This document shows positions 11,072 through 32,000 of a stretch of 32,000 nucleotides of DNA, piece after piece (within the stretch, counting starts at the first letter, position 1; each line of letters begins with the position of its first letter). The DNA comes from Candidatus Methanoperedens sp. (lineage in GTDB: Archaea > Halobacteriota > Methanosarcinia > Methanosarcinales > Methanoperedenaceae), in the NCBI GenBank assembly GCA_041494705.1, contig JBGQBI010000004.1:296471-328470 (forward strand). Reading direction: 5' to 3'. The translations under genes were made by a program, and so were the position numbers. A model generated the notes under the pieces. The model saw nothing but the letters and a program-made list of their open reading frames with translations. It was not told where the DNA came from and ran no database searches.

Positions 11072-11674
11072 ATGATTGCCGAACTCCTGTCTGGTTATAT
11101 CACACAATTCATTTCCACCATCGGATATGCAGGAGTTTTTATTTTAATGACCATGGAAAGCGCCGCCCTTCCAGTGCCCTCAGAAGTTGTGATGCCGTTT
11201 GCAGGCTTTGTGGTATATCAGGCACATCAGGGAGTTTTCAATGTGTTTTTGATAAGCATTGTAGGTGCAGTTGGATGCACCACCGGCTCGGTCATCTCAT
11301 ATTATGTAGGACTAAAAGGAGGGAGACCCTTCATAGAGAAATATGGCAAATATCTCTTTATTGAAAGCAGCCATATGAAGCTTGCAGAGACATGGTTCAA
11401 TAAATACGGGGACAGGGCTGTTTTCTTTTCAAGGTTACTCCCCGTTGTTCGCACTTTCATCTCACTCCCGGCAGGTATAGGAAAGTATGACCTGAGAAAA
11501 CTGGTGACATTCAGTTTTATCGGCTCATTACCCTGGTGCTTTGCCCTGGCATACGTGGGATTCTACCTTGGGCCTTTCTGGAAGAATATCATTGGCTTTT
11601 TTAACGGGCTTGATATTGTTGTGGTCGTTTCGATAATTATTATCGTTTTGTATTATTGGAAACTCCGGAAGTGA
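11072..11674 (+). CDS. DedA/SNARE-associated family membrane protein
   Basis: 200 aa polytopic protein with FFSRLLPVVRTFISLPAG, the DedA signature. Confidence 0.8.
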   Translation: MIAELLSGYITQFISTIGYAGVFILMTMESAALPVPSEVVMPFAGFVVYQAHQGVFNVFLISIVGAVGCTTGSVISYYVGLKGGRPFIEKYGKYLFIESSHMKLAETWFNKYGDRAVFFSRLLPVVRTFISLPAGIGKYDLRKLVTFSFIGSLPWCFALAYVGFYLGPFWKNIIGFFNGLDIVVVVSIIIIVLYYWKLRK

Positions 11675-17621: not shown

Positions 17622-18677
17622 TCATTTTATAGACCCCGCCACTTTAACCAGTTCTTCCTTGCTCAATGGGCTGGAAACCGTCAGTTCAAGATTTCCGATG
17701 TTCCATGTAAGCATTTTGCTCTCTCCAAACCCGGACATGATTTTACCTTCAGCGCCATTTATGCTGACCTTCTCAACATCCCCAAAATCAGGCGCATGGT
17801 TCGTATCATCCTTCAGCTTTTCAGAAAGCAGAAGCATTTGCGAACCTTTCTGATATGTAAGGGATACGATTTCCATTTTGTCATATTTGAATACTGTGGC
17901 GCTTTCAAATACATACCCCTCTGGCAGATAGGAAGGCGAAATTACTGAGAAATTGACTTCTTTCTTCGCCTCTTCAAGTGTTATCTTTTTAGGCGGCGCG
18001 GGCAGCTCTCGTGTGGAAACTTTCGCCCCTTCAGGTATCTTGAACTCAAATTCGCTGTCAGGTATGCCCGTGTTGAACTTTATATCGCGATATTCTATAG
18101 AAGATAAAAGTGTATCGTTCTTATCAAAAGTTTCCATTTTAAGAGGCATCCAGTTTTCACTGTCTACCCACATGCTGAAATGTATTCCCATCAACATATC
18201 TTCTTTTTTGGGCGCGGCTTTTATGAGATATACGCTGCGTTCCTCAAACTTATCCGTGCCCTGATATGATATGTCTGTCTGGTTAAGAAGTTCCCTGATG
18301 GATTGTATGTAATCCTGTTCGGATGGATTGGTATTGTTGATTTCAGGCATATCCATCTTAGTTACCTCATTTTTCTTAGGGTCGTAACTCCAGATGGTCT
18401 TGCCGTCGTTGACCATGACCTGGCCGGCCATTTCAGCGGGTTCAAGATATTCAAACCGGCTTTTGCCGGGCATCTTGTTTATTATTTTAGCCTTTGTCAT
18501 CTCGTTCTTTCCGCCAAACGATGATGAGATGACCATCGTGGCTGAATAGTCTTTAATACTGTCCTGCTTCGCTTTCATCTGCTTTGCAATCTGCTCGGCA
18601 GACATGTTCGCAGTACAGCCAGAAATAAGGGCTATTATAATAACTGCGAGCAGAACTATTCCTGTTCTTTTAATCAT
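17622..18677 (-). CDS. Lipoprotein with a LolA-like fold and DUF4367-like C-terminal domain
   Basis: Signal peptide ending in the lipobox LISGC. The pattern YSATMV...GKSRFEYLEP...GKTIWSYDPKKNEV is typical of LolA/outer-membrane-lipoprotein-sorting-like beta-barrels. AGGAGG SD present. Confidence 0.6.
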   Translation of the reverse strand: MIKRTGIVLLAVIIIALISGCTANMSAEQIAKQMKAKQDSIKDYSATMVISSSFGGKNEMTKAKIINKMPGKSRFEYLEPAEMAGQVMVNDGKTIWSYDPKKNEVTKMDMPEINNTNPSEQDYIQSIRELLNQTDISYQGTDKFEERSVYLIKAAPKKEDMLMGIHFSMWVDSENWMPLKMETFDKNDTLLSSIEYRDIKFNTGIPDSEFEFKIPEGAKVSTRELPAPPKKITLEEAKKEVNFSVISPSYLPEGYVFESATVFKYDKMEIVSLTYQKGSQMLLLSEKLKDDTNHAPDFGDVEKVSINGAEGKIMSGFGESKMLTWNIGNLELTVSSPLSKEELVKVAGSIK

Positions 18678-18782: not shown

Positions 18783-18977
18783 TTACTCATCAAAGATAAA
18801 AACCTCCTCTATTTTGGATTTCAATACCTTTGATATATCGTATGCAAGTTTCAACGAAGGATTATATTTCCCCTTTTCTAAAAAAAGGATGGTTTCTCTT
18901 CTCACACCTACCTTTTTAGCAAGCTCTTCCTGGGTTAAATCGTATCTTGCCCGAAGCTCCTTGATTCTGGTTTTCAT
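18783..18977 (-). CDS. XRE-family (Cro/CI-type) HTH transcriptional regulator, 64 aa
   Basis: [48 protein letters not shown] is the canonical short XRE HTH. Its ATG overlaps the stop of the preceding membrane paralog (TAATG). Confidence 0.85.
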
Positions 18978-19405
18978 TATACTTCGCCTTTTTTGTCAAT
19001 ATAATGCCCAATAATTATCCAGGAAAACATGCTGGCGACCGAAATCACATATACCGTGCTTGTATATTCCAGCCTTAAATTTAAGATGCTGTTAGCAAGG
19101 CCGGAAACGATCAAGACCGCAATAAGCAGCAAAAATGCAAATGATCCAGCCTTCTCACCGACACGCATAGATCGTTCGTCAGCTATTGTATTTCCTTCTG
19201 ATTCTGCCTTGAACCTTTTGATGTTGAAATATGCGCCTATCAAAAGAGTCAAGCCAAAAATGATGAAAATCAAGGGCTCATAATACGGTTTTCCTTCATA
19301 AATAGTTTGAAGGAACCAAAAAGATGCAAATGCGAGCATAAATACGCTTGTGGCCAGGTTAATCTTACTCATCAACAGTAGTTTTTTATTTTCGTTAAGT
19401 TTCAT
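18977..19405 (-). CDS. Array paralog 1 (last in transcription order): 4-TM DER-loop membrane protein (DUF2178-like)
   Basis: 142 aa, four hydrophobic helices, loop [18 protein letters not shown]-terminus YIDKKGEV. Confidence 0.7.
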
Positions 19406-19803
19406 TCGATATCGCCTTTTTTGTAGAAATAAAATGCAAATAACGCATATAACACAAACATGCCTAAAGGCAAAAAAAACCCCACCTCAATAAAATTTAT
19501 CTCAGGCGGCGGAAATCCAATGTTGAGCATACCGAAAAGAGACAGAGAAACGAAAGTCAACCAAAAAACATAATATGCCGCCTTTTCTGAGCCTCTTTGT
19601 CCTCGTTCATCGACAAGAATAACTGTTGGTTTTGGTTTTGTTGATTGATATATCGTTCTTACCAGCATAGTGGCCCAAACAGCAGTAAAGACTGACAGAT
19701 GCTGATTTGATGTATTTTGAAGCCAACGCGCAAAAAAAATTAACACCAAAAAAATAAAAAAACCCGCTTCAAACAAAATATCTTTATCTTTCCTGAATTT
19801 CAT
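19402..19803 (-). CDS. Array paralog 2: 4-TM DER-loop membrane protein (DUF2178-like)
   Basis: 133 aa. N-terminus MKFRKDKDI, loop VDERGQRGSEKAAYYVF, C-terminus [12 protein letters not shown] overlaps at both ends. Confidence 0.7.
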   Translation of the reverse strand: MKFRKDKDILFEAGFFIFLVLIFFARWLQNTSNQHLSVFTAVWATMLVRTIYQSTKPKPTVILVDERGQRGSEKAAYYVFWLTFVSLSLFGMLNIGFPPPEINFIEVGFFLPLGMFVLYALFAFYFYKKGDIE

Positions 19804-20195
19804 TTAATATCACCTTTTTTATTATAAAACCACAGAAATAATATGAATGAATATATTCCCATAAACAAAATCACAACACTTGCATCCTTGTATATTATGG
19901 TTCCAGGAATTACAATTTCAAATATGTCCAGAATTATAATTGTCTCCATGACAATCCAAAAAGCAGCATGTCCTGCTTTATCCCTATTTTTATTAGTCCT
20001 CTCATCAGGCATAAAATATTCTTTTGGCTTTGATGCAACATACACACCCATTGAGGTCAGTATCAGCCCGCCAAGAATAAGCCCTCCGCCAAGAAATGGC
20101 GGATTTACATATTTGGATAGAACTGCGCCTACAAGCGCCATGCCTATGCTTGCCGCAAAAAACTTCATTATTTCTTTGTCTGTTCTGAATTTCAT
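19800..20195 (-). CDS. Array paralog 3: 4-TM DER-loop membrane protein (DUF2178-like)
   Basis: 131 aa. N-terminus MKFRTDKEI, loop PDERTNKNRDKAGHAAF, C-terminus FYNKKGDIK. ATGA overlaps at both ends. Confidence 0.7.
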   Translation of the reverse strand: MKFRTDKEIMKFFAASIGMALVGAVLSKYVNPPFLGGGLILGGLILTSMGVYVASKPKEYFMPDERTNKNRDKAGHAAFWIVMETIIILDIFEIVIPGTIIYKDASVVILFMGIYSFILFLWFYNKKGDIK

Positions 20196-20605
20196 TCAGC
20201 ATCACCTTTTTTGTTGTAGTACCACCTAAACACAATGAAAATCCATAGTCCGATAATCCATATATCCCGAACCACTTGCTCTACTTCTATCGACGGTGTT
20301 ATTGACGGGGAGATTTTCAGCAATCGCAGGAGCGAGATTATTGCTGCAATCAGCAGGGTTGCAATAAACGCAGAATATCCGGCTTTTTCACGGACTCTGG
20401 TGGAGCGTTCGTCTTCTATTAAATCTTCTTTAGATTTAGTTGCTGCAATAAGACCGGCAGTTAATCCTATCAGACCACCCATAATTAAAAGAAATCCGAT
20501 AGTGCTAAATGGTTTGATAAATAAAAAAATGATAATTCCAGCCAGAATTGCGCCCAGACTGATCCCAATAAATTTTATGATGTCCTTATCTTTCCTGAAT
20601 CTCAT
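20192..20605 (-). CDS. Array paralog 4: 4-TM DER-loop membrane protein (DUF2178-like)
   Basis: 137 aa. N-terminus MRFRKDKDI, loop EDERSTRVREKAGYSAF, C-terminus WYYNKKGDAE. Closest to paralog 6 (shared SPS(I/L)TPS and WYYNKKGD). Confidence 0.7.
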   Translation of the reverse strand: MRFRKDKDIIKFIGISLGAILAGIIIFLFIKPFSTIGFLLIMGGLIGLTAGLIAATKSKEDLIEDERSTRVREKAGYSAFIATLLIAAIISLLRLLKISPSITPSIEVEQVVRDIWIIGLWIFIVFRWYYNKKGDAE

Positions 20606-20631
20606 TTTATAGTCACCCTTATCTATCGGTT

Positions 20632-21042
20632 TTATTCTCCTTTTTTAACAAAATAGTAAACCAGTATGCCCCACGAATATATTCCGATATGTGCGACAAT
20701 TATCGGCGTCCATGGGGAATCCTTGGCTGCCAGCAGGAAATTATTTGTCCCACCCAAAATGTATGCTCCACTCAATAGAAACAAACATCCCATAAGAATC
20801 AGAAATGCGTATAAGCTCGCTTTTTCACCAGCTCTTCTGGTTCTTTCATCGCCCAAAACTCCTGTTCTTGGCCTGGACAAAAGAAGCGAGGCAGTTATGA
20901 TGATGTCCAACTGCCAAATAATGAAGATAATATTGTTTGGGCTAAACCTTCGTCCTAAAATTATTTGGATTATTGTACTTGCCAATAACACAAACCCGAG
21001 AACGAATACCAAATACAGCCATTTTCTGTTGAATTTGTTCAT
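20632..21042 (-). CDS. Array paralog 5: 4-TM DER-loop membrane protein (DUF2178-like)
   Basis: 136 aa. Loop GDERTRRAGEKASLYAF, C-terminus YFVKKGE. A 26-nt gap with GGGTGAC SD separates it from the next gene. Confidence 0.7.
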   Translation of the reverse strand: MNKFNRKWLYLVFVLGFVLLASTIIQIILGRRFSPNNIIFIIWQLDIIITASLLLSRPRTGVLGDERTRRAGEKASLYAFLILMGCLFLLSGAYILGGTNNFLLAAKDSPWTPIIVAHIGIYSWGILVYYFVKKGE

Positions 21043-21452
21043 TTGATATCACCTTTTTTATTGTAGTACCACTTAAGTATCAAGAAAGAGTACAGCCCTA
21101 TGACCCAAATTAGAAGAGCTCCACCCAAGAAATCGTTGGAAGGAGTTAACGAGGGGGACAACTTCACAATATTAAGGAACATAATTACTGCCGCCACAGA
21201 CACCATTATTTCATACGCGTAATACCCTGCTTTTTCCTTAATTCTTCCAGACCGCTCATCTTCCATAAAGTAATCTTTGGGTTTTGAAGCTATACGTAAA
21301 CCTATTATAAATCCCATCAGTCCGCTAGAAATTGAAATAACCCCAATAATCGTAATCTGGGGAATGAACCATATTATAAATGTTCCAGCCAAAATTGCAG
21401 CCAAACAGAATCCAAGAAGTTTTGAAATATCTTTGTCTTTTCTAAATTTCAT
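21039..21452 (-). CDS. Array paralog 6: 4-TM DER-loop membrane protein (DUF2178-like)
   Basis: 137 aa. N-terminus MKFRKDKDI, loop EDERSGRIKEKAGYYAY, C-terminus WYYNKKGDIK. ATGA overlaps at both ends. Confidence 0.7.
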   Translation of the reverse strand: MKFRKDKDISKLLGFCLAAILAGTFIIWFIPQITIIGVISISSGLMGFIIGLRIASKPKDYFMEDERSGRIKEKAGYYAYEIMVSVAAVIMFLNIVKLSPSLTPSNDFLGGALLIWVIGLYSFLILKWYYNKKGDIK

Positions 21453-21838
21453 TCCACGTCACCTTTCCTTTTGAAGAACCACTGAAAAACTCCCGCAGCC
21501 ACGGTCGCCACAGCCAATGTTAATGAAAGAGCTTGTGAAGCAGGCATCTTAACCAGATTATAAAGATCTAACCATAGCAATAAACTCACGAATATAAATG
21601 TAACCAGCCATGAATAAGCCAGTGCAAAAGCCCCAAGCTTTGTTGTTCTCTCATCACTCTCAGGTCCCTCTCCGAATTTTAGATGCCGAAGCGCGCTTCC
21701 TATAATGAGAATCAAACCGGACAATGTAAATAAACTTGCAATTAAACTGAAAACGCCTTTCCAGATAATCTCTATCGCTATACCCAGAAGCAGCAGCACA
21801 AGCCCAATCGCCAGACGGGATTTATATTCGTTCTTCAT
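21449..21838 (-). CDS. Array paralog 7: divergent 4-TM DER-loop membrane protein
   Basis: 129 aa. Loop SDERTTKLGAFALAYSW (EKA lost), C-terminus FFKRKGDVE. Confidence 0.65.
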   Translation of the reverse strand: MKNEYKSRLAIGLVLLLLGIAIEIIWKGVFSLIASLFTLSGLILIIGSALRHLKFGEGPESDERTTKLGAFALAYSWLVTFIFVSLLLWLDLYNLVKMPASQALSLTLAVATVAAGVFQWFFKRKGDVE

Positions 21839-21847
21839 ATACTTACT

Positions 21848-22234
21848 CTAAAACCCGATTTCCTTCTTTATCTTCGTATAATACAAGTGGAATGCTATTT
21901 TTGAAACTATTATGACCGCAATCAAAATCCCGAGTACTTCGAACACATCAAAAAGCATTGGGTAAAAATGCAACACTATCGTCAGTATCCCGATTGTTGA
22001 GATTGCTGCAACCAGTGTATACTCCGACGCTATGGAGGAAATTCTTTTTGTCATTTCATCTTTTTTCATTTCACCTTTGTATATTGATCTACGTAAAAAA
22101 TAATTTAAAAATAGTGCTATTCCAGCAGCGGCCATCATACTTACCCCAACAGTATCGCCATAAAATGATAAGATAACGGCAGCAATTCCAAAAATCGAAG
22201 CCAGTACCAGCGTTAGCATGTCAGATTTTTTCAT
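21848..22234 (-). CDS. Array paralog 8 (first in transcription order): most divergent 4-TM member
   Basis: ATG at 22234 is preceded by GGAGGT (22246..22241); the track start at 22249 is TTG. Loop is degenerate (KKDEMTKRISSIASEYTL) and the C-terminus YYTKIKKEIGF lacks KKGD. Confidence 0.6.
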   Translation of the reverse strand: MKKSDMLTLVLASIFGIAAVILSFYGDTVGVSMMAAAGIALFLNYFLRRSIYKGEMKKDEMTKRISSIASEYTLVAAISTIGILTIVLHFYPMLFDVFEVLGILIAVIIVSKIAFHLYYTKIKKEIGF

Positions 22235-22248
22235 ATCATCAACCTCCA

Positions 22249-22296
22249 AATGTTGTATATTTACAACATTATGTTATGTATTTAACACTATTTAAA
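22249..22296 (-). promoter_or_regulatory. Putative promoter (TATA box TTTAAATA) plus a perfect 9-4-9 palindromic operator upstream of the membrane-protein array
   Basis: Minus-strand TTTAAATA is plus 22289..22296. AATGTTGTA-TATT-TACAACATT lies at 22249..22270, about 20-40 nt downstream of the TATA box (the expected TSS zone) and directly upstream of the SD. Confidence 0.5.
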
Positions 22297-22471: not shown

Positions 22472-24466
22472 ATGAATATTAACCTGAATCTGGCTATGAA
22501 TCAAAGACAAAAACCAGCACAATCGACTGCATGGGAACAGGATAAAAATTACATTTTCTGGTGCCCCAAGTGCAACATCCCATTGCTTGAGGAAGAGTGC
22601 GGCATATGCCATGAAAAAAGTGCTCAAATCGAGCTTTCCCAGCCCGGAGACGTGCGGTTTTCCTCGCAGCATGAAAGAGAAATAATCAACAACTTGATGC
22701 TAGAGCTTTTTGGCAGCAATCCTCTTGCAGGAAAACTCATTCTTTTGAATAAAATTCCGGGCGAGGATAAGACAGACGAGATTCTCGTGGATGGAATTCG
22801 TTTCGGCGTGTTGAGATTCGATATGAAGGAACTCGATTTCAAGCTCGACCTCATGGTTGAAGGGGCTTCTGCGCTCATAAATTCAGGCATTTTAAGTAAA
22901 CTTGTTAAAATATCCTCAGGCGGGCGGCATCTGAGCGGCAAAAACATTGACGGGAGCGAAGTCATTGAGTGTTCGGAGGATATCAGGAAAGGGGATACCG
23001 TTCTTGTAATTGCCAGGAATTTAAGCGGGTTTGGCATATCATATCGCGATAGCGGCGATTTGAAACACCCGGGGCAGGCGTTAAAGGTCAAAAAAATCGA
23101 ATCGCAACAAGTGAGCTTTATTTCAAGGAATCCATCCATGGATGAAATTATCCGCGCCAATGCGCCTCACATGAAAAGGCTTGTCAGGGATGCCGTAAAT
23201 ACTATCAGGGGAATCGCAAACCAGAAAGAATTCAGGGATTCGCCTGTCTATGTTTCTTTTTCAGGCGGCAAGGACAGCCTTACAACGCTTGACCTCACGC
23301 GGAACGCCGTGAAAAAACCAATAAAGGTATTTTTTGCAAACACTGGAATCGAATTTCCGGAAACGGTTGAGTTTGTAAGAAGATTCTGCAAAGAAAACAG
23401 TATCGAGCTTATAGAAGTGGAGGCAAAGGATGCTTTCTTTGAGAATCTTCCGAGTTTCGGACCTCCTGCCAAGGATTTCAGGTGGTGCTGCAAGGTGTGC
23501 AAACTTGCGCCCATCAATACCGTCATAGAAGAATGCACGCGCGGCGGGGGGAAGTGTTTGACGATTGACGGGAAAAGGAAATACGAGTCCTTTACACGCT
23601 CGCGGATAGCCCCGAAAGAGGAGAACCCGTTCATTCCGGGGCAGGTGAGCGTGTTCCCGATACGCGACTGGCGCGCCATCGAAGTGTGGCTCTATATTTA
23701 TTACAGGAAACTTGAATTCAATCCATTGTACGAGCTTGGTTTTGAACGAGTGGGATGCTGGCTCTGCCCTGCTGAACTCAGCGCAGAATATTACCGGGTC
23801 AGGGAATTGCATCCTGAATTGTTTGGGCGCTGGAATGATTACCTTTTGAATTGGGCAAAAGAGCACGGAGTTACAGATGAATTCATCGGGCATGGATTCT
23901 GGCGCTGGAAAACATTGCCGCCCAAGATGATTCGCCTTGCTGAAGAGCTGAAAATCAGTACGGCATTAAAGGGCAAAAAAGAAGAGTTCGGCATCGTGGT
24001 GACAGGCGGGGTTTCGCCCTGCAAGACGGGCAGCTATACGATTGAAGGGAAAGTTTCAGGGCTTACACTTGATGAAGCCCAGAATATCGCCAACATCCTC
24101 GGTGATAATGTATTCTCAGAAGACCTCGGGGTGCTTCTGGTTAAAACAAAAAGCTCAAGCGTCAAGATATTTTCATCAGGGCATATCTCGGTGAATGCGC
24201 CGGATGAAAAAGAGGCGTTGTCGCTTTTTGAGAATGCGGCAAAGCAATTAATCCGGGTGAAGAAGTGCACGAAATGCGGCGTGTGTTTGAAAGTGTGTCC
24301 TGTGGATGCTATCGTTATCGAACCGCAGCTTAAAATAAGCAAAGAGTGCACACGATGCGGGAAATGTACGGAATCATGCGTTGTTGTGAAGTATTTTGAC
24401 AGGCTTTTGCCACAATTCAGCCAGAGAAATACCGTGCAATCACCGGCGTCACATAAGATTCAATAA
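22472..24466 (+). CDS. PAPS-reductase/PP-loop ATP-pyrophosphatase family protein with an N-terminal zinc ribbon and C-terminal 2x[4Fe-4S] ferredoxin domain
   Basis: CPKCNIPLLEEECGIC (Zn ribbon), VSFSGGKDS (PP-loop), CTKCGVCLKVCP and CTRCGKCTESC (ferredoxin motifs). The true start may be a downstream Met. The last ~9 codons run into repeat copy A. Confidence 0.75.
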   Translation: MNINLNLAMNQRQKPAQSTAWEQDKNYIFWCPKCNIPLLEEECGICHEKSAQIELSQPGDVRFSSQHEREIINNLMLELFGSNPLAGKLILLNKIPGEDKTDEILVDGIRFGVLRFDMKELDFKLDLMVEGASALINSGILSKLVKISSGGRHLSGKNIDGSEVIECSEDIRKGDTVLVIARNLSGFGISYRDSGDLKHPGQALKVKKIESQQVSFISRNPSMDEIIRANAPHMKRLVRDAVNTIRGIANQKEFRDSPVYVSFSGGKDSLTTLDLTRNAVKKPIKVFFANTGIEFPETVEFVRRFCKENSIELIEVEAKDAFFENLPSFGPPAKDFRWCCKVCKLAPINTVIEECTRGGGKCLTIDGKRKYESFTRSRIAPKEENPFIPGQVSVFPIRDWRAIEVWLYIYYRKLEFNPLYELGFERVGCWLCPAELSAEYYRVRELHPELFGRWNDYLLNWAKEHGVTDEFIGHGFWRWKTLPPKMIRLAEELKISTALKGKKEEFGIVVTGGVSPCKTGSYTIEGKVSGLTLDEAQNIANILGDNVFSEDLGVLLVKTKSSSVKIFSSGHISVNAPDEKEALSLFENAAKQLIRVKKCTKCGVCLKVCPVDAIVIEPQLKISKECTRCGKCTESCVVVKYFDRLLPQFSQRNTVQSPASHKIQ

Positions 24467-24568: not shown

Positions 24569-25495
24569 ATGTCCGATACCGATACATCATCAATCCAGGA
24601 AAAGCTTCTTTCACGCATAAATGAAAAAATACACAGGCTTAACTCGCTTCGCCCTCTTCCAGCCGATGCCGTAAAAAAGTTACATGAAGAAATGAGGCTG
24701 CTGCATACGTATCACTCAAATGCAATAGAAGGGAATACCCTGACGCTTCCCGAGACAAAACTTGTTCTTGAAGAGGGTATTACCATAGGCGGGAAATCAC
24801 TGCGCGAGCACCTTGAAGCAACAAACAATGCCAGGGCATTCGATTTAATAGAGGATATTGCAAAGAAGAAAAAGACAATAGACCATGCTGTAATTCAGCA
24901 AATTCATGAAGTTATCACGTCAGGCATTCTCGAAGGCGCAGGCAAATACCGCACCAAGAACGTCAGGATAACGGGTGCAGCAAAAACTCCGCCAGACTGG
25001 TCAAAAGTTACCAAGCTGATGGATGAGCTTATTGAAAAAATCACTCAATGTAAAAGACATCCTGTTGATATTGCTGCCTTCCTGCATCACAGATTCGTTG
25101 AGATACATCCATTCATAGATGGAAATGGCAGGGCGTCCCGCCTTCTCACCAACCTGTATTTGATTGCCCAGGGTTATCCGCCAATAGTTCTCAAAATAGA
25201 GGACAGAGGAAAATATTACAGGTTCCTGAGAGCAGCGGATGCTGGAAACATTGTCCTGTTTGCCAATTTCATTGCAAAGGCTGTTGATGAGAGCCTGACG
25301 ATGTATCTTTCCATCTCTGGCGGGGTTGATGAACTGCTGCCCCTCAGAGAACTTGCTGGAAACACACCTTATTCCCAGGAATACCTGAGCCTGAGAGCAA
25401 GGCAGGGTGTTCTGGATGCGGTAAGAATAGGGAAAATATGGTATTCATCAAGAAATGCAATAGAACAATATCTATCTGAACACGGCAAACGATAG
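24569..25495 (+). CDS. Fic family protein (AMPylase-type) with an N-terminal inhibitory motif and C-terminal HTH-like domain
   Basis: Canonical HPFIDGNGRASR (HxFx[D/E]GNGRxxR). The upstream SNAIEGN fits the (S/T)xxxE(G/N) autoinhibitory helix. The C-terminal ~60 aa (LRELAGNTPYSQEYLSLRARQGVLDAVRIGKIWY) looks like a small DNA-binding domain. Confidence 0.85.
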   Translation: MSDTDTSSIQEKLLSRINEKIHRLNSLRPLPADAVKKLHEEMRLLHTYHSNAIEGNTLTLPETKLVLEEGITIGGKSLREHLEATNNARAFDLIEDIAKKKKTIDHAVIQQIHEVITSGILEGAGKYRTKNVRITGAAKTPPDWSKVTKLMDELIEKITQCKRHPVDIAAFLHHRFVEIHPFIDGNGRASRLLTNLYLIAQGYPPIVLKIEDRGKYYRFLRAADAGNIVLFANFIAKAVDESLTMYLSISGGVDELLPLRELAGNTPYSQEYLSLRARQGVLDAVRIGKIWYSSRNAIEQYLSEHGKR

Positions 25496-30155: not shown

Positions 30156-30563
30156 TAATCCCCTTTATAGCATCAAAAGGATGCTCAAATCATTTTTGGT
30201 AGGGTGATGCTGGCCAAGGCAATTAAAGCAAGGACCCACAATGCGATTTTTCCTTTTGTTAGCCTGATGTTCGAGAATATATTGGTCATATATTATCCGT
30301 TTTCTTTTAATATAGTTTTTGTCCTCATTAGTAATAAATGTTTCTATAGGGCGTAGATGTTTTTTCGGTCATTCTCATTCATAAGAATCGTCTCTACCTT
30401 TTATTTATCAAACGGGTAAGATAACATTACCAATTACAAATTATTTCGCACCCTCTCCTCCTTTCCACGGGCCATGCATGAATGCGGTATGGTGCGACCT
30501 TGGGAAATCTCCCGCGGTAGGATTGGGAAAAGGTGCACGTCTAAATAAGAAGGAGACAAAAAA

Positions 30564-32000
30564 ATGAACAAAAAACTAATATTTGGGTTAATACCGGTGG
30601 TAGTAATAACTTTATTAATACCTGGGGCTTTGAGTTCGTGCGGCTATCTCAGTAGCTTCGAAAAAACGTACCCCGATGCGGTAGGATCAAGAATTGATAC
30701 TTGCGAGCTCTGTCATATCAACCCGTCTGGCGGAGGACCATTGAACTCCTATGGTACAGATTTTGCGAACAATAGACACAACTTTACAGCAATAGAGTCA
30801 AACGACTCGGATAAAGATAGATTTACCAACATTGCTGAAATCAATGCCACGACTTTCCCTGGCAATGCACTCGACAATCCATTAACCCCAAAACAGACAC
30901 CGGCTCTCGACGGGGCGACATTATACTCCAGCTACTGCCAGGACTGCCATAACCCACTGACATCTTCCAGCAAGCTAGGGGCTACGGCGGCGCAGATTCA
31001 GATTGCAATCAACACAGTCCCCGAAATGAAAACCCTCTCCCCACTGAGAATGGCGCAGCTCCAGGCTATCTCAACCGCCCTGGCTGTGTCGCCAACTTCT
31101 TCACCGACTACGGCTCTTGACAGGGCGGCACTTTACGCCAGCTACTGCCAGGGGTGCCATAACCCACTGGCATCTTCAACCAAGCACGGAAGAACGGCAG
31201 ATCAGATTAAGAATTCCATCAGCACTGTTTCAGCCATGAAATCCCTCTCCTCTCTGAATTCGGCGCAGCTCCAGGCTATCGCAATCGCGCTGGGTGCGTC
31301 GCAAACACCAATCCCGTCGGTGATTCTCGACGGGGCGTCACTATACGCCGGCAACTGCGCAGGCTGCCATAGCTCCCTGGCATCTACCGTCAAGCCCGGA
31401 AGAACGGCGGCGCAGATTCAGAATGCCATCAGCGCAGTCTCCTCCATGAATTCCCTCTCTTCCCTGAGTTCGGCTCAGATCCAGGCTATCGCAGCCGCCC
31501 TACCTCCAGCACCGGCACCAACGCCACCACTAGCACTAACTACGACTCTTGATGGGGCGACACTATACGCTAGCTTTTGCACAAGCTGCCATAGCTCCCT
31601 GGCATCTACCTCCAAGCCCGGAAGAACGGCGGCGCAGATTACGAGTGCCATTAGTTCAGTTCCTGACATGAGTTCCCTCTCTTCCCTGAGTGCGGAGCAG
31701 ATCGCGGCTATCGCAGCCATCCTACCTGCAATCCCGACACCAACGCCATCACCAACTCCGACCCTCAACGGGACAGCACTCTACGCCGGCAACTGCGCAG
31801 GCTGCCATAACCCTCTGGCATCTACCACCAAGCCCGGAAGAACGGCAACGCAGATTACGAATGCCATCAGTACTGTTTCTACCATGAGTTCCCTCTCTTC
31901 CCTGACCTCCCTGAGTTCGGCGCAGATCACGGCTATTGCAGCCATCCTACCTCCAATTCCGACACCAACGCCATCACCAACTCCGACCCTCAACGGGTCA
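30564..32000 (+). CDS. Secreted or lipid-anchored modular c-type cytochrome (N-terminal CxxCH module plus tandem monoheme modules), 3' end beyond the window
   Basis: ATG at 30564 is preceded by AAGGAG, and the frame is open for 479 codons to the window edge. It is not in the ORF track because it has no stop. Signal peptide with LSSC lipobox. Six CxxCH motifs: CELCH, CQDCH, CQGCH, CAGCH, CTSCH, CAGCH. Confidence 0.85.
   Translation, partial: MNKKLIFGLIPVVVITLLIPGALSSCGYLSSFEKTYPDAVGSRIDTCELCHINPSGGGPLNSYGTDFANNRHNFTAIESNDSDKDRFTNIAEINATTFPGNALDNPLTPKQTPALDGATLYSSYCQDCHNPLTSSSKLGATAAQIQIAINTVPEMKTLSPLRMAQLQAISTALAVSPTSSPTTALDRAALYASYCQGCHNPLASSTKHGRTADQIKNSISTVSAMKSLSSLNSAQLQAIAIALGASQTPIPSVILDGASLYAGNCAGCHSSLASTVKPGRTAAQIQNAISAVSSMNSLSSLSSAQIQAIAAALPPAPAPTPPLALTTTLDGATLYASFCTSCHSSLASTSKPGRTAAQITSAISSVPDMSSLSSLSAEQIAAIAAILPAIPTPTPSPTPTLNGTALYAGNCAGCHNPLASTTKPGRTATQITNAISTVSTMSSLSSLTSLSSAQITAIAAILPPIPTPTPSPTPTLNGS
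30906..32000 (+). repeat. In-frame tandem coding repeats (periods 210, 210, 222, 216, 225 nt)
   Basis: Module starts (L(D/N)G..LY) are at 30906, 31116, 31326, 31548, 31764 and 31989. The later copies share long identical strings, e.g. ccgacaccaacgccatcaccaactccgaccctcaacggg occurs twice. Confidence 0.9.

Follow-up and report, generated by a model that had tools for sequence, protein, structure and literature searches.

The closest described relative of the protein discussed here is PgcA (GSU1761) of Geobacter sulfurreducens, an extracellular trihaem cytochrome that aids the reduction of Fe(III) oxides, with a haem number that varies among its homologues (Zacharoff et al. 2017, PMC5732950), and more generally of Fe(III) and Mn(IV) oxides (PMC10570954; PMC11520253; PMC5732950). 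Its three monohaem domains are carried on (PT)x linkers, tumble independently and span up to 180 Å (Fernandes et al. 2023, “Hemes on a string”, PMC10570954; PMC11520253). Electrons are exchanged between these domains, whose potentials are -48, -65 and -106 mV, and domain III reduces Fe(III) oxide (PMC10570954; PMC11520253). Structures are available as PDB entries 8QJ6, 8QJG and 8QK0, of which 8QJ6 is domain I (haem ligands His274/Met301) and 8QJG is domain II (His365/Met392; Nash et al. 2024, PMC11520253). Proteins of this design have been named “microbial heme-tethered redox strings”, and bacterial paralogues carry 3-14 haems (PMC10570954; PMC11520253). We report here that a gene starting at position 30564 of a 32,000-nt stretch of Candidatus Methanoperedens sp. 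(assembly GCA_041494705.1, contig JBGQBI010000004.1; the whole stretch is referred to as the window) encodes an archaeal member of this established class; as a kind of protein it is not new. In this manuscript, we call it the string gene.

The open reading frame (ORF) of the string gene runs from an ATG at 30564 on the forward strand to the end of the window, which amounts to 479 codons without a stop, and an AAGGAG ribosome-binding site (30550-30555) precedes the ATG by 8 nt. Every base of the window agrees with a public 2,065,243-bp contig of the Joint Genome Institute (JGI), here L001, in which the window end falls at position 11437. On that contig the gene continues for 1,068 nt past the window edge to a stop at L001 12505, giving 2,505 nt in all, and a protein search recovered the full product (P0001; labelled by JGI as “mono/diheme cytochrome c family protein”), which has 834 aa and is identical over the window part. 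A first-pass annotation, made from the letters of the window, had seen the gene cut off at the edge; the identical contig supplies the complete gene as well as its neighbours, including an NrfH-like gene downstream. The same annotation remarked that the gene was absent from the list of ORFs, which is true but trivial, since the program that made the list skips ORFs that leave the source; in this region it shows just a spurious antisense 97-aa ORF (31475-31768).

The string protein consists of a predicted signal peptide, a module of ~75 aa with its own CxxCH motif, and ten monohaem domains on Pro/Thr/Ser-rich linkers. Six CxxCH motifs lie in the window part (aa 47, 125, 195, 265, 339 and 411) and 11 in the full protein, of which the N-terminal module has one and the ten repeat modules have one each, at spacings of 66-79 aa. 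The C-terminus reads ...AIAKALSTA, with no transmembrane or PGF-CTERM anchor there.

Repeat modules, linkers and the N-terminal module

Five complete repeat units of 70, 70, 74, 72 and 75 aa lie in the window, and a sixth begins at its edge, in agreement with the count and lengths given at first pass. Tandem Repeats Finder describes the array as 5.0 copies of a 210-nt period (75% matches, score 855). The units had been taken for small class I (His/Met) cytochromes c, and this assignment is borne out by profile and structure comparisons alike. Pfam PF13442 (Cytochrome_CBB3) matches in five stretches (E=3.6e-30; 104.5 bits against a cut-off of 27), and PF00034 also matches (60.9 bits against 21.3), both above the gathering score. 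When a single module is compared with the PDB by phmmer, 8QJ6 (E=5.7e-8) and 8QJG (E=2.8e-6) are retrieved, both under the name “Lipoprotein cytochrome c”, and the full string protein reaches E=4.5e-12 against the same two entries. The AlphaFold2 model of module 3, built on an alignment of 107 modules taken from search hits, is a ~58-aa, all-helical domain with one CxxCH (predicted local distance difference test score, pLDDT, 96; predicted template-modelling score 0.82). Foldseek places PgcA domain I first (8QJ6; template-modelling score 0.83, rmsd 1.2 Å, 53% identity) and domain II next (8QJG), the two domains spanning scores of 0.82-0.83, root-mean-square deviations (rmsd) of 1.2-1.3 Å and identities of 46-53%, while ordinary class I cytochromes (c-553, c6, c4, OmcF) enter the list only from rank 6 onward, at E>0.07. 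The absence of a haem-binding fold, which the first-pass annotation had named as fatal to its reading, is not what the model gave.

The class is defined by a distal Met or His ~26-32 residues past the proximal His, and every one of the ten repeat modules has a Met at precisely His+26, counted from the haem His (30 residues from the first Cys, where “about 30” had been estimated). This Met aligns with the distal Met301 and Met392 of PgcA, the ligation itself being predicted from sequence. The selection of the 107 modules required G..LY, CxxCH and Met, so that the invariance of these positions in the alignment is partly by construction. No module among the ten lacks the Met or has a His at the distal position, and none resembles the His/His domain III of PgcA; the divergent C-terminal module 10 (CSSCHH...SKMKS) is closest to PgcA domain II, and its Met is kept. 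Overall, we regard it as highly probable that the repeat modules are PgcA-type monohaem domains of the His/Met type. Thr/Pro-rich tandem repeats are also common in adhesins and other surface proteins (PMC5732950), and the array might on that ground be taken for a structural or adhesive repeat protein in which CxxCH is incidental or metal-binding and there is no redox chain. Given that hundreds of modules keep CxxCH, the distal Met and the fold, and that the modules are 46-53% identical to crystallised haem domains, such a protein is scarcely credible here, and a pure adhesin is ruled out by the conserved haem ligands and fold.

The nine linkers are 6-19 aa long (13, 13, 17, 15 and 15 aa, then 19, 19 and 17 aa past the window), and their combined Pro, Thr and Ser fraction lies between 0.38 and 0.89, rising from 0.4-0.6 to 0.9 toward the C-terminus; the trend to longer and richer Pro/Thr linkers recognised at first pass continues in the full protein. 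They total 134 residues, from which we estimate a stretched contour of at most ~65-70 nm (134 residues at 3.1-3.5 Å plus ten domains of ~25 Å). The repeat region also stands out in composition, with 57% G+C and a GC skew of -0.25 at 31001-32000 and 36-51% G+C in the rest of the window; the high G+C probably reflects a protein rich in Ala, Pro, Thr and Ser.

Compared with PgcA, the string protein has the same homologous ~60-aa all-helical monohaem domain with aligned His and Met, a single haem in each domain, linkers rich in Pro and Thr, and no tightly packed haem chain; its N-terminus resembles the export signal of PgcA and includes a lipobox-like Cys. It differs in that it comes from an archaeal host without an outer membrane, and in having 10 (or 7; see below) repeat modules, all of the Met type, where PgcA has three, one of which is the His/His domain III that has no counterpart in the string. 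The cofactor-less secretion domain of PgcA (residues 58-252) is replaced by the small CxxCH module with its Ca-loop-like (DxDxD) motif, the linkers do not reach the length of those in PgcA, where 29 alternating Pro-Thr (PTx) repeats stand before the haem motifs, and a conserved NrfH-like gene follows the string gene. Domain III and the secretion domain are peculiar to PgcA, and a His/His domain is no defining trait of the class. Small class I cytochromes c (PF13442/PF00034; c-553, c6, OmcF 3DP5) share with the string modules the N-terminal CxxCH, the C-terminal Met and the helical fold, but each of them is a soluble carrier made of one domain of 80-90 aa that has an additional helix, whereas the string domain is minimal (~58 aa) and concatenated ten times.

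Large multihaem cytochromes, namely the S-layer-fused cytochromes of anaerobic methanotrophic (ANME) archaea, the OmcS/OmcE/OmcZ nanowires, MtrC/OmcA and GSU1996 (c7-type domains), also place many haems on one extracellular polypeptide, presumably for long-range transfer. Their haems lie <5-15 Å apart and are mostly bis-His, with CxxCH motifs a few to tens of residues apart; those of the string protein are 66-79 residues apart, in separate domains divided by disordered spacers. The contrast with tightly packed bis-His archaeal cytochromes that was drawn at first pass is upheld by this spacing and by the Met ligands, which together rule out a nanowire or packed multihaem protein. The accompanying idea of a tethered relay has been demonstrated by experiment for the homologous Geobacter PgcA (PMC10570954, PMC11520253). 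The implied novelty of the design was overstated, given that PgcA and the heme-tethered redox strings had already been described and that thousands of bacterial relatives exist.

The N-terminal module is less readily placed. It falls just under the cut-off for Pfam Temptin_C (26.3 bits against 27), and gives a partial match to the NCBIfam GEGP dihaem family NF041762 (E=4.8e-17). Its family has a calcium loop (Ca-loop) of the DSDGDGFTNIAEI type, here degenerated to DSDKDRF. The module also heads unrelated secreted proteins of Nitrospirota, Desulfobacterota, Chloroflexota, Geobacter/Pelobacter and another archaeon, where a Pro-rich linker usually comes next, as well as two strings with 13-14 modules. 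A profile search found no significant relative of it in the PDB, a homologue search with the module alone returned only two fragments and was uninformative, and the AlphaFold2 model, made from a 12-sequence alignment, is too poor to use (pLDDT 46). We describe it on its motifs as a putative haem module, its fold being established by neither the model nor the PDB profile search. The N-terminus of the protein itself is signal-peptide-like, with a lipobox-like LSSC; a lipid anchor is uncertain because Cys26 is replaced by Asp or His in some orthologues.

Orthologues, family size and module number

A scan of GTDB species genomes gave orthologues of 79-88% identity on five contigs labelled Candidatus Methanoperedens sp. 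and one labelled “uncultured archaeon”; judged by these nearest relatives, the host is a Methanoperedens (ANME-2d) archaeon. Counts of CxxCH motifs among orthologues are 7, 9, 11, at least 8, and 13. String orthologues are present in at least five Methanoperedens genomes and have 6-12 repeat modules. Other genes of the window, judged from translations and Pfam matches, are archaeal housekeeping genes (a DnaG-like primase, RFC, RPA, HMG-CoA reductase, UPF0179, and an Fe-ADH-family gene read as glycerol-1-phosphate dehydrogenase), and these flanking genes on a 2-Mb contig rule out a Borg or plasmid location. Neither the window nor the 22.5 kb covered of the 2.07-Mb contig contains cytochrome c maturation (ccm) genes; for the Methanosarcinales/ANME group, ccm genes and an abundance of c-type cytochromes are described (PMC4429474).

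Beyond Methanoperedens, a first family search gave 402 matches among 8,000 candidates scored, many with 4-9 tandem modules at ~70-aa spacing, and a profile search gave ~3,800 representatives of clusters drawn at 50% identity, some of them with 12-14 PgcA-type modules. In one protein 19 stretches match, although the modules there are closer in appearance to ordinary class I domains. The string protein thus adds Archaea to the Desulfuromonadia as a group with “hemes on a string”, in a family whose largest members have at least 14 PgcA-type modules. So far, its presence in Archaea seems to have gone undescribed, because in the literature searched no paper names both PgcA and Methanoperedens; none was found citing the assembly or contig accessions, and the string protein is not described in the Methanoperedens electron-transfer paper PMC10874420 or the Desulfuromonadia cytochrome survey PMC11492766.

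The repeat units are unequally related to each other. Unit-to-unit nucleotide identity is 61-73% for units 1, 2 and 10 and 84-91% for units 5-8 (89-91% for units 6-8). Modules 1-3 and 10 have their best matches at the same position in the orthologues (68-92% identity), whereas modules 5-9 are 82-85% identical to each other and 62-75% identical to orthologue modules in all but one comparison, the exception being module 9, which reaches 82% against one orthologue. Because modules 5-9 are nearer to each other than to the modules of orthologues, the comparison shows, at the level of sequence, that the central modules expanded, or were gene-converted, within each lineage. Recent expansion had been proposed at first pass, and the identities within units 5-8 and the lineage-specific modules 5-9 uphold it. 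The “long identical nucleotide stretches” cited for it are modest inside the window (39-48 nt) and pronounced just beyond, where the longest exact repeat, of 209 nt, lies.

Modules 5-8 start on NGT or NGS in place of the DG(A/G) of the remaining modules. These starts (aa 402, 477, 556 and 635; the first at 31764-31772) place an N-glycosylation sequon at the opening of each of these recently expanded modules, which may matter for an archaeal surface protein.

The warning that repeat number might be mis-assembled from short reads proved well founded. The second public assembly, GCA_041480985.1, has a string gene of 1,815 nt encoding 604 aa and seven modules, as against 2,505 nt, 834 aa and ten modules, although the 8-kb flanks on either side are 100% identical in the two assemblies. 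The difference suggests a repeat collapse in one assembly, because the short version consists of three pieces of the long one, joined at two points that both lie inside repeats; alternatively it might be a real polymorphism. The same discrepancy, together with exact repeats of up to 209 nt, could be taken further, to mean that the array or its length is an assembly artefact and that the true gene has fewer modules and the window is mis-joined. This we consider very unlikely, since the first 1,357 nt of the string gene are exact and the five window modules identical in both assemblies, since the window modules share 65-81% nucleotide identity and are distinct enough for unambiguous assembly, and since independent metagenome-assembled genomes (MAGs) of other species carry 6-12 repeat modules. 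A complete artefact is ruled out by the identity of the window part in the two assemblies and by the orthologues elsewhere, and only the number of central modules (7 or 10) is in doubt. For annotators, the case shows that the repeat number of tethered-string genes is unreliable in short-read assemblies.

The NrfH-like neighbour and the proposed electron route

The next gene begins 151 nt after the string gene (L001 12657-13403) and encodes a 248-aa protein with an N-terminal transmembrane helix and seven haem motifs, one CX3CH (CGKNCH-I-M) and six CXXCH. It matches almost the whole of the NrfH model TIGR03153 (E=1.3e-18, model positions 5-138 of 138) with 67 bits, under the equivalog cut-off of 134, and it matches the NrfH crystal structure (PDB 2J7A_C, E=2.7e-5); Pfam PF03264 gives no match. 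With NrfH/NapC/NirT proteins (2J7A chain C; TIGR03153) it shares the N-terminal membrane helix, the Ile-Met after the first haem motif and the whole-model match, and it differs from NrfH in its first motif (CX3CH and not CXXCH), in three extra C-terminal CXXCH motifs, and in having no NrfA gene nearby. By tblastn, at least five species-level genomes have an NrfH-like gene immediately after the string gene (loci L001/L003, L005, L006, L008 and L009).

In discussions of how electrons from methane oxidation leave Methanoperedens (ANME-2d) for metal oxides, electrodes or partner cells, attention has so far gone mainly to multihaem cytochromes that are large and tightly packed. A string that several Methanoperedens species have kept, together with its NrfH-like partner, is a concrete, testable candidate for part of this pathway. 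With moderate confidence, and reasoning by analogy, we favour a secreted, flexible electron relay that would run from a membrane quinol dehydrogenase to the cell exterior. The NrfH-like membrane-anchored multihaem protein would oxidise membrane quinol and reduce the string, possibly via the N-terminal haem module. The tethered domains would then move freely and pass electrons on through transient collisions, as measured for PgcA, and the 11-haem chain, which could reach tens of nm, would form a bridge to acceptors at or beyond the S-layer, such as Fe/Mn oxides, other surface cytochromes or partner cells. Lineage by lineage, the central modules might be duplicated or gene-converted, which would tune its copy number.

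The identity of the neighbour also allows a shorter route. NrfH-family proteins classically feed periplasmic reductases, which the TIGR03153 and 2J7A matches bring to mind, and Methanoperedens respires nitrate (PMC4429474); the string could then be a carrier or electron buffer that stays between membrane and S-layer and takes electrons from the NrfH-like donor to nitrite/nitrate reductases or other soluble enzymes, without export. The haems themselves are compatible with such higher-potential chains. In PgcA, Glu281 and Asp372 (at His+7) hydrogen-bond the proximal His and are suggested to hold the potential low; of the ten His/Met-type string modules, nine lack an acidic residue at this position. 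Still, we regard a carrier confined to the envelope as unlikely: there is no reductase gene adjacent to the string locus, a ten-domain string with protease-resistant Pro/Thr tethers would be odd for a short-range shuttle, the characterised homologue PgcA is extracellular (PMC10570954), and a bacterial relative sits in a porin-cytochrome cluster.

This last relative comes from a Sideroxyarcus MAG (L129 5001-10707) and has tandem PgcA-type modules and a C-terminal multihaem part. Its gene is followed directly by an MtrA-like gene of decahaem type and a gene for an MtrB/PioB porin, which places the family in outer-surface electron-transfer clusters; its slot is the usual place of the extracellular MtrC-type cytochrome. 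The neighbourhood recalls the Mto/Pio uptake systems, the close bacterial relatives of the string protein include iron-oxidiser lineages (Sideroxyarcus, Nitrosomonadales), and His/Met haem potentials often suit uptake, all of which could fit a flow in reverse, in which the string would take electrons from Fe(II), reduced minerals or a partner and pass them through the NrfH-like protein to the quinone pool. We hold this to be decidedly improbable, as PgcA operates reductively and Methanoperedens is presented as an electron-exporting methane oxidiser in PMC10874420 and PMC10542353.

Several observations weigh against the outward relay that we favour. The lipobox Cys is not conserved among orthologues, and the His/His terminal domain, which is the mineral-reducing part in PgcA, is missing from the string protein. 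Because modules 1-9 lack the acidic residue at His+7 (an Asp stands there only in module 10), the string haems may, to judge from the residues, be of higher potential and a better fit to soluble or nitrogen-oxide-linked chains. Paralogues in one Methanoperedens MAG (L002/L004) are not followed by an NrfH-like gene and sit between PGF-CTERM proteins and an ABC transporter. Finally, what is said of the string protein's haem attachment, location, redox potentials and direction of electron flow is inference throughout.

A stronger form of the outward relay is put forward as a tentative proposal. The string gene and its NrfH-like neighbour might together constitute a minimal two-gene extracellular electron route, in which a quinol dehydrogenase would charge an 11-haem chain of up to ~65 nm that reaches through or past the S-layer and works by diffusive collisions with no packed wire, its reach being tuned by the number of modules. 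If true, Archaea would have their first described tethered-haem conduit, and the question of how ANME-2d archaea carry electrons across the envelope would have a new answer.

Leader sequence, feature coordinates and other genes

Upstream of the string gene, a leader is kept in the orthologous loci of other Methanoperedens (Table 1). Its two boxes recur upstream of the NrfH-like gene (L001 12580-12656) as ATTTCGCACC and AGGATTGGRAAAMGGKGCA. RNAalifold gives the leader a closed multi-stem fold, with just two covarying pairs among five close sequences. Rfam returned no real match for the string gene and both leaders (only a DnaX element, E=0.78), and a metagenome scan with the 3' box gave 103 chance matches, none with the 5' box or a cytochrome gene. 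The leader could be a shared regulatory site or a structured untranslated region.

Table 1. Positions of the string gene's leader and protein segments in the window
Feature	Position	Strand	Remarks
Conserved 5' leader (~120 nt) of string gene	30443..30563	+	Kept upstream of orthologues in other Methanoperedens loci
Leader box ATTTCGCACC	30443-30452	+	In string-gene leader
Leader box AGGATTGGGAAAAGGTGCA	30519-30537	+	In string-gene leader
Predicted signal peptide MNKKLIFGLIPVVVITLLIPGALSS	30564..30638	+	aa 1-25; followed by Cys26 of lipobox-like LSSC; read from sequence
N-terminal haem module and short linker	30639..30899	+	aa 26-112; CELCH at aa 47-51 (30702-30716)
Degenerate Ca-loop-like motif DSDKDRFTNIAEI in N-terminal module	30804-30842	+	aa 81-93
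PgcA-type module 1 and linker	30900..31109	+	aa 113-182; CQDCH; Met at His+26
PgcA-type module 2 and linker	31110..31319	+	aa 183-252; CQGCH
PgcA-type module 3 and linker PPAPAPTPPLALTTT	31320..31541	+	aa 253-326; CAGCH
PgcA-type module 4 and linker PAIPTPTPSPTPT	31542..31757	+	aa 327-398; CTSCH
PgcA-type module 5 and linker PPIPTPTPSPTPT	31758..31982	+	aa 399-473; CAGCH; first of the recently expanded central modules
Start of module 6	31983..32000	+	From aa 474, six residues; modules 6-10 beyond window

Other genes of the window lie further upstream. Seven tandem paralogous genes on the reverse strand (18977-22249) encode small membrane proteins of ~130-142 aa, most of which match DUF2178. 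They are followed by a gene for a 664-aa fusion of a PAPS-reductase domain and a 4Fe-4S dicluster domain (22472-24466), and next after it by a gene for a Fic-domain protein (24569-25495). On the reverse strand at 17622-18677 there is a gene for a 351-aa protein with a lipobox-like LISGC signal and LolA-like and DUF4367 domains; among archaea, which lack an outer membrane, a LolA-like fold is unusual.

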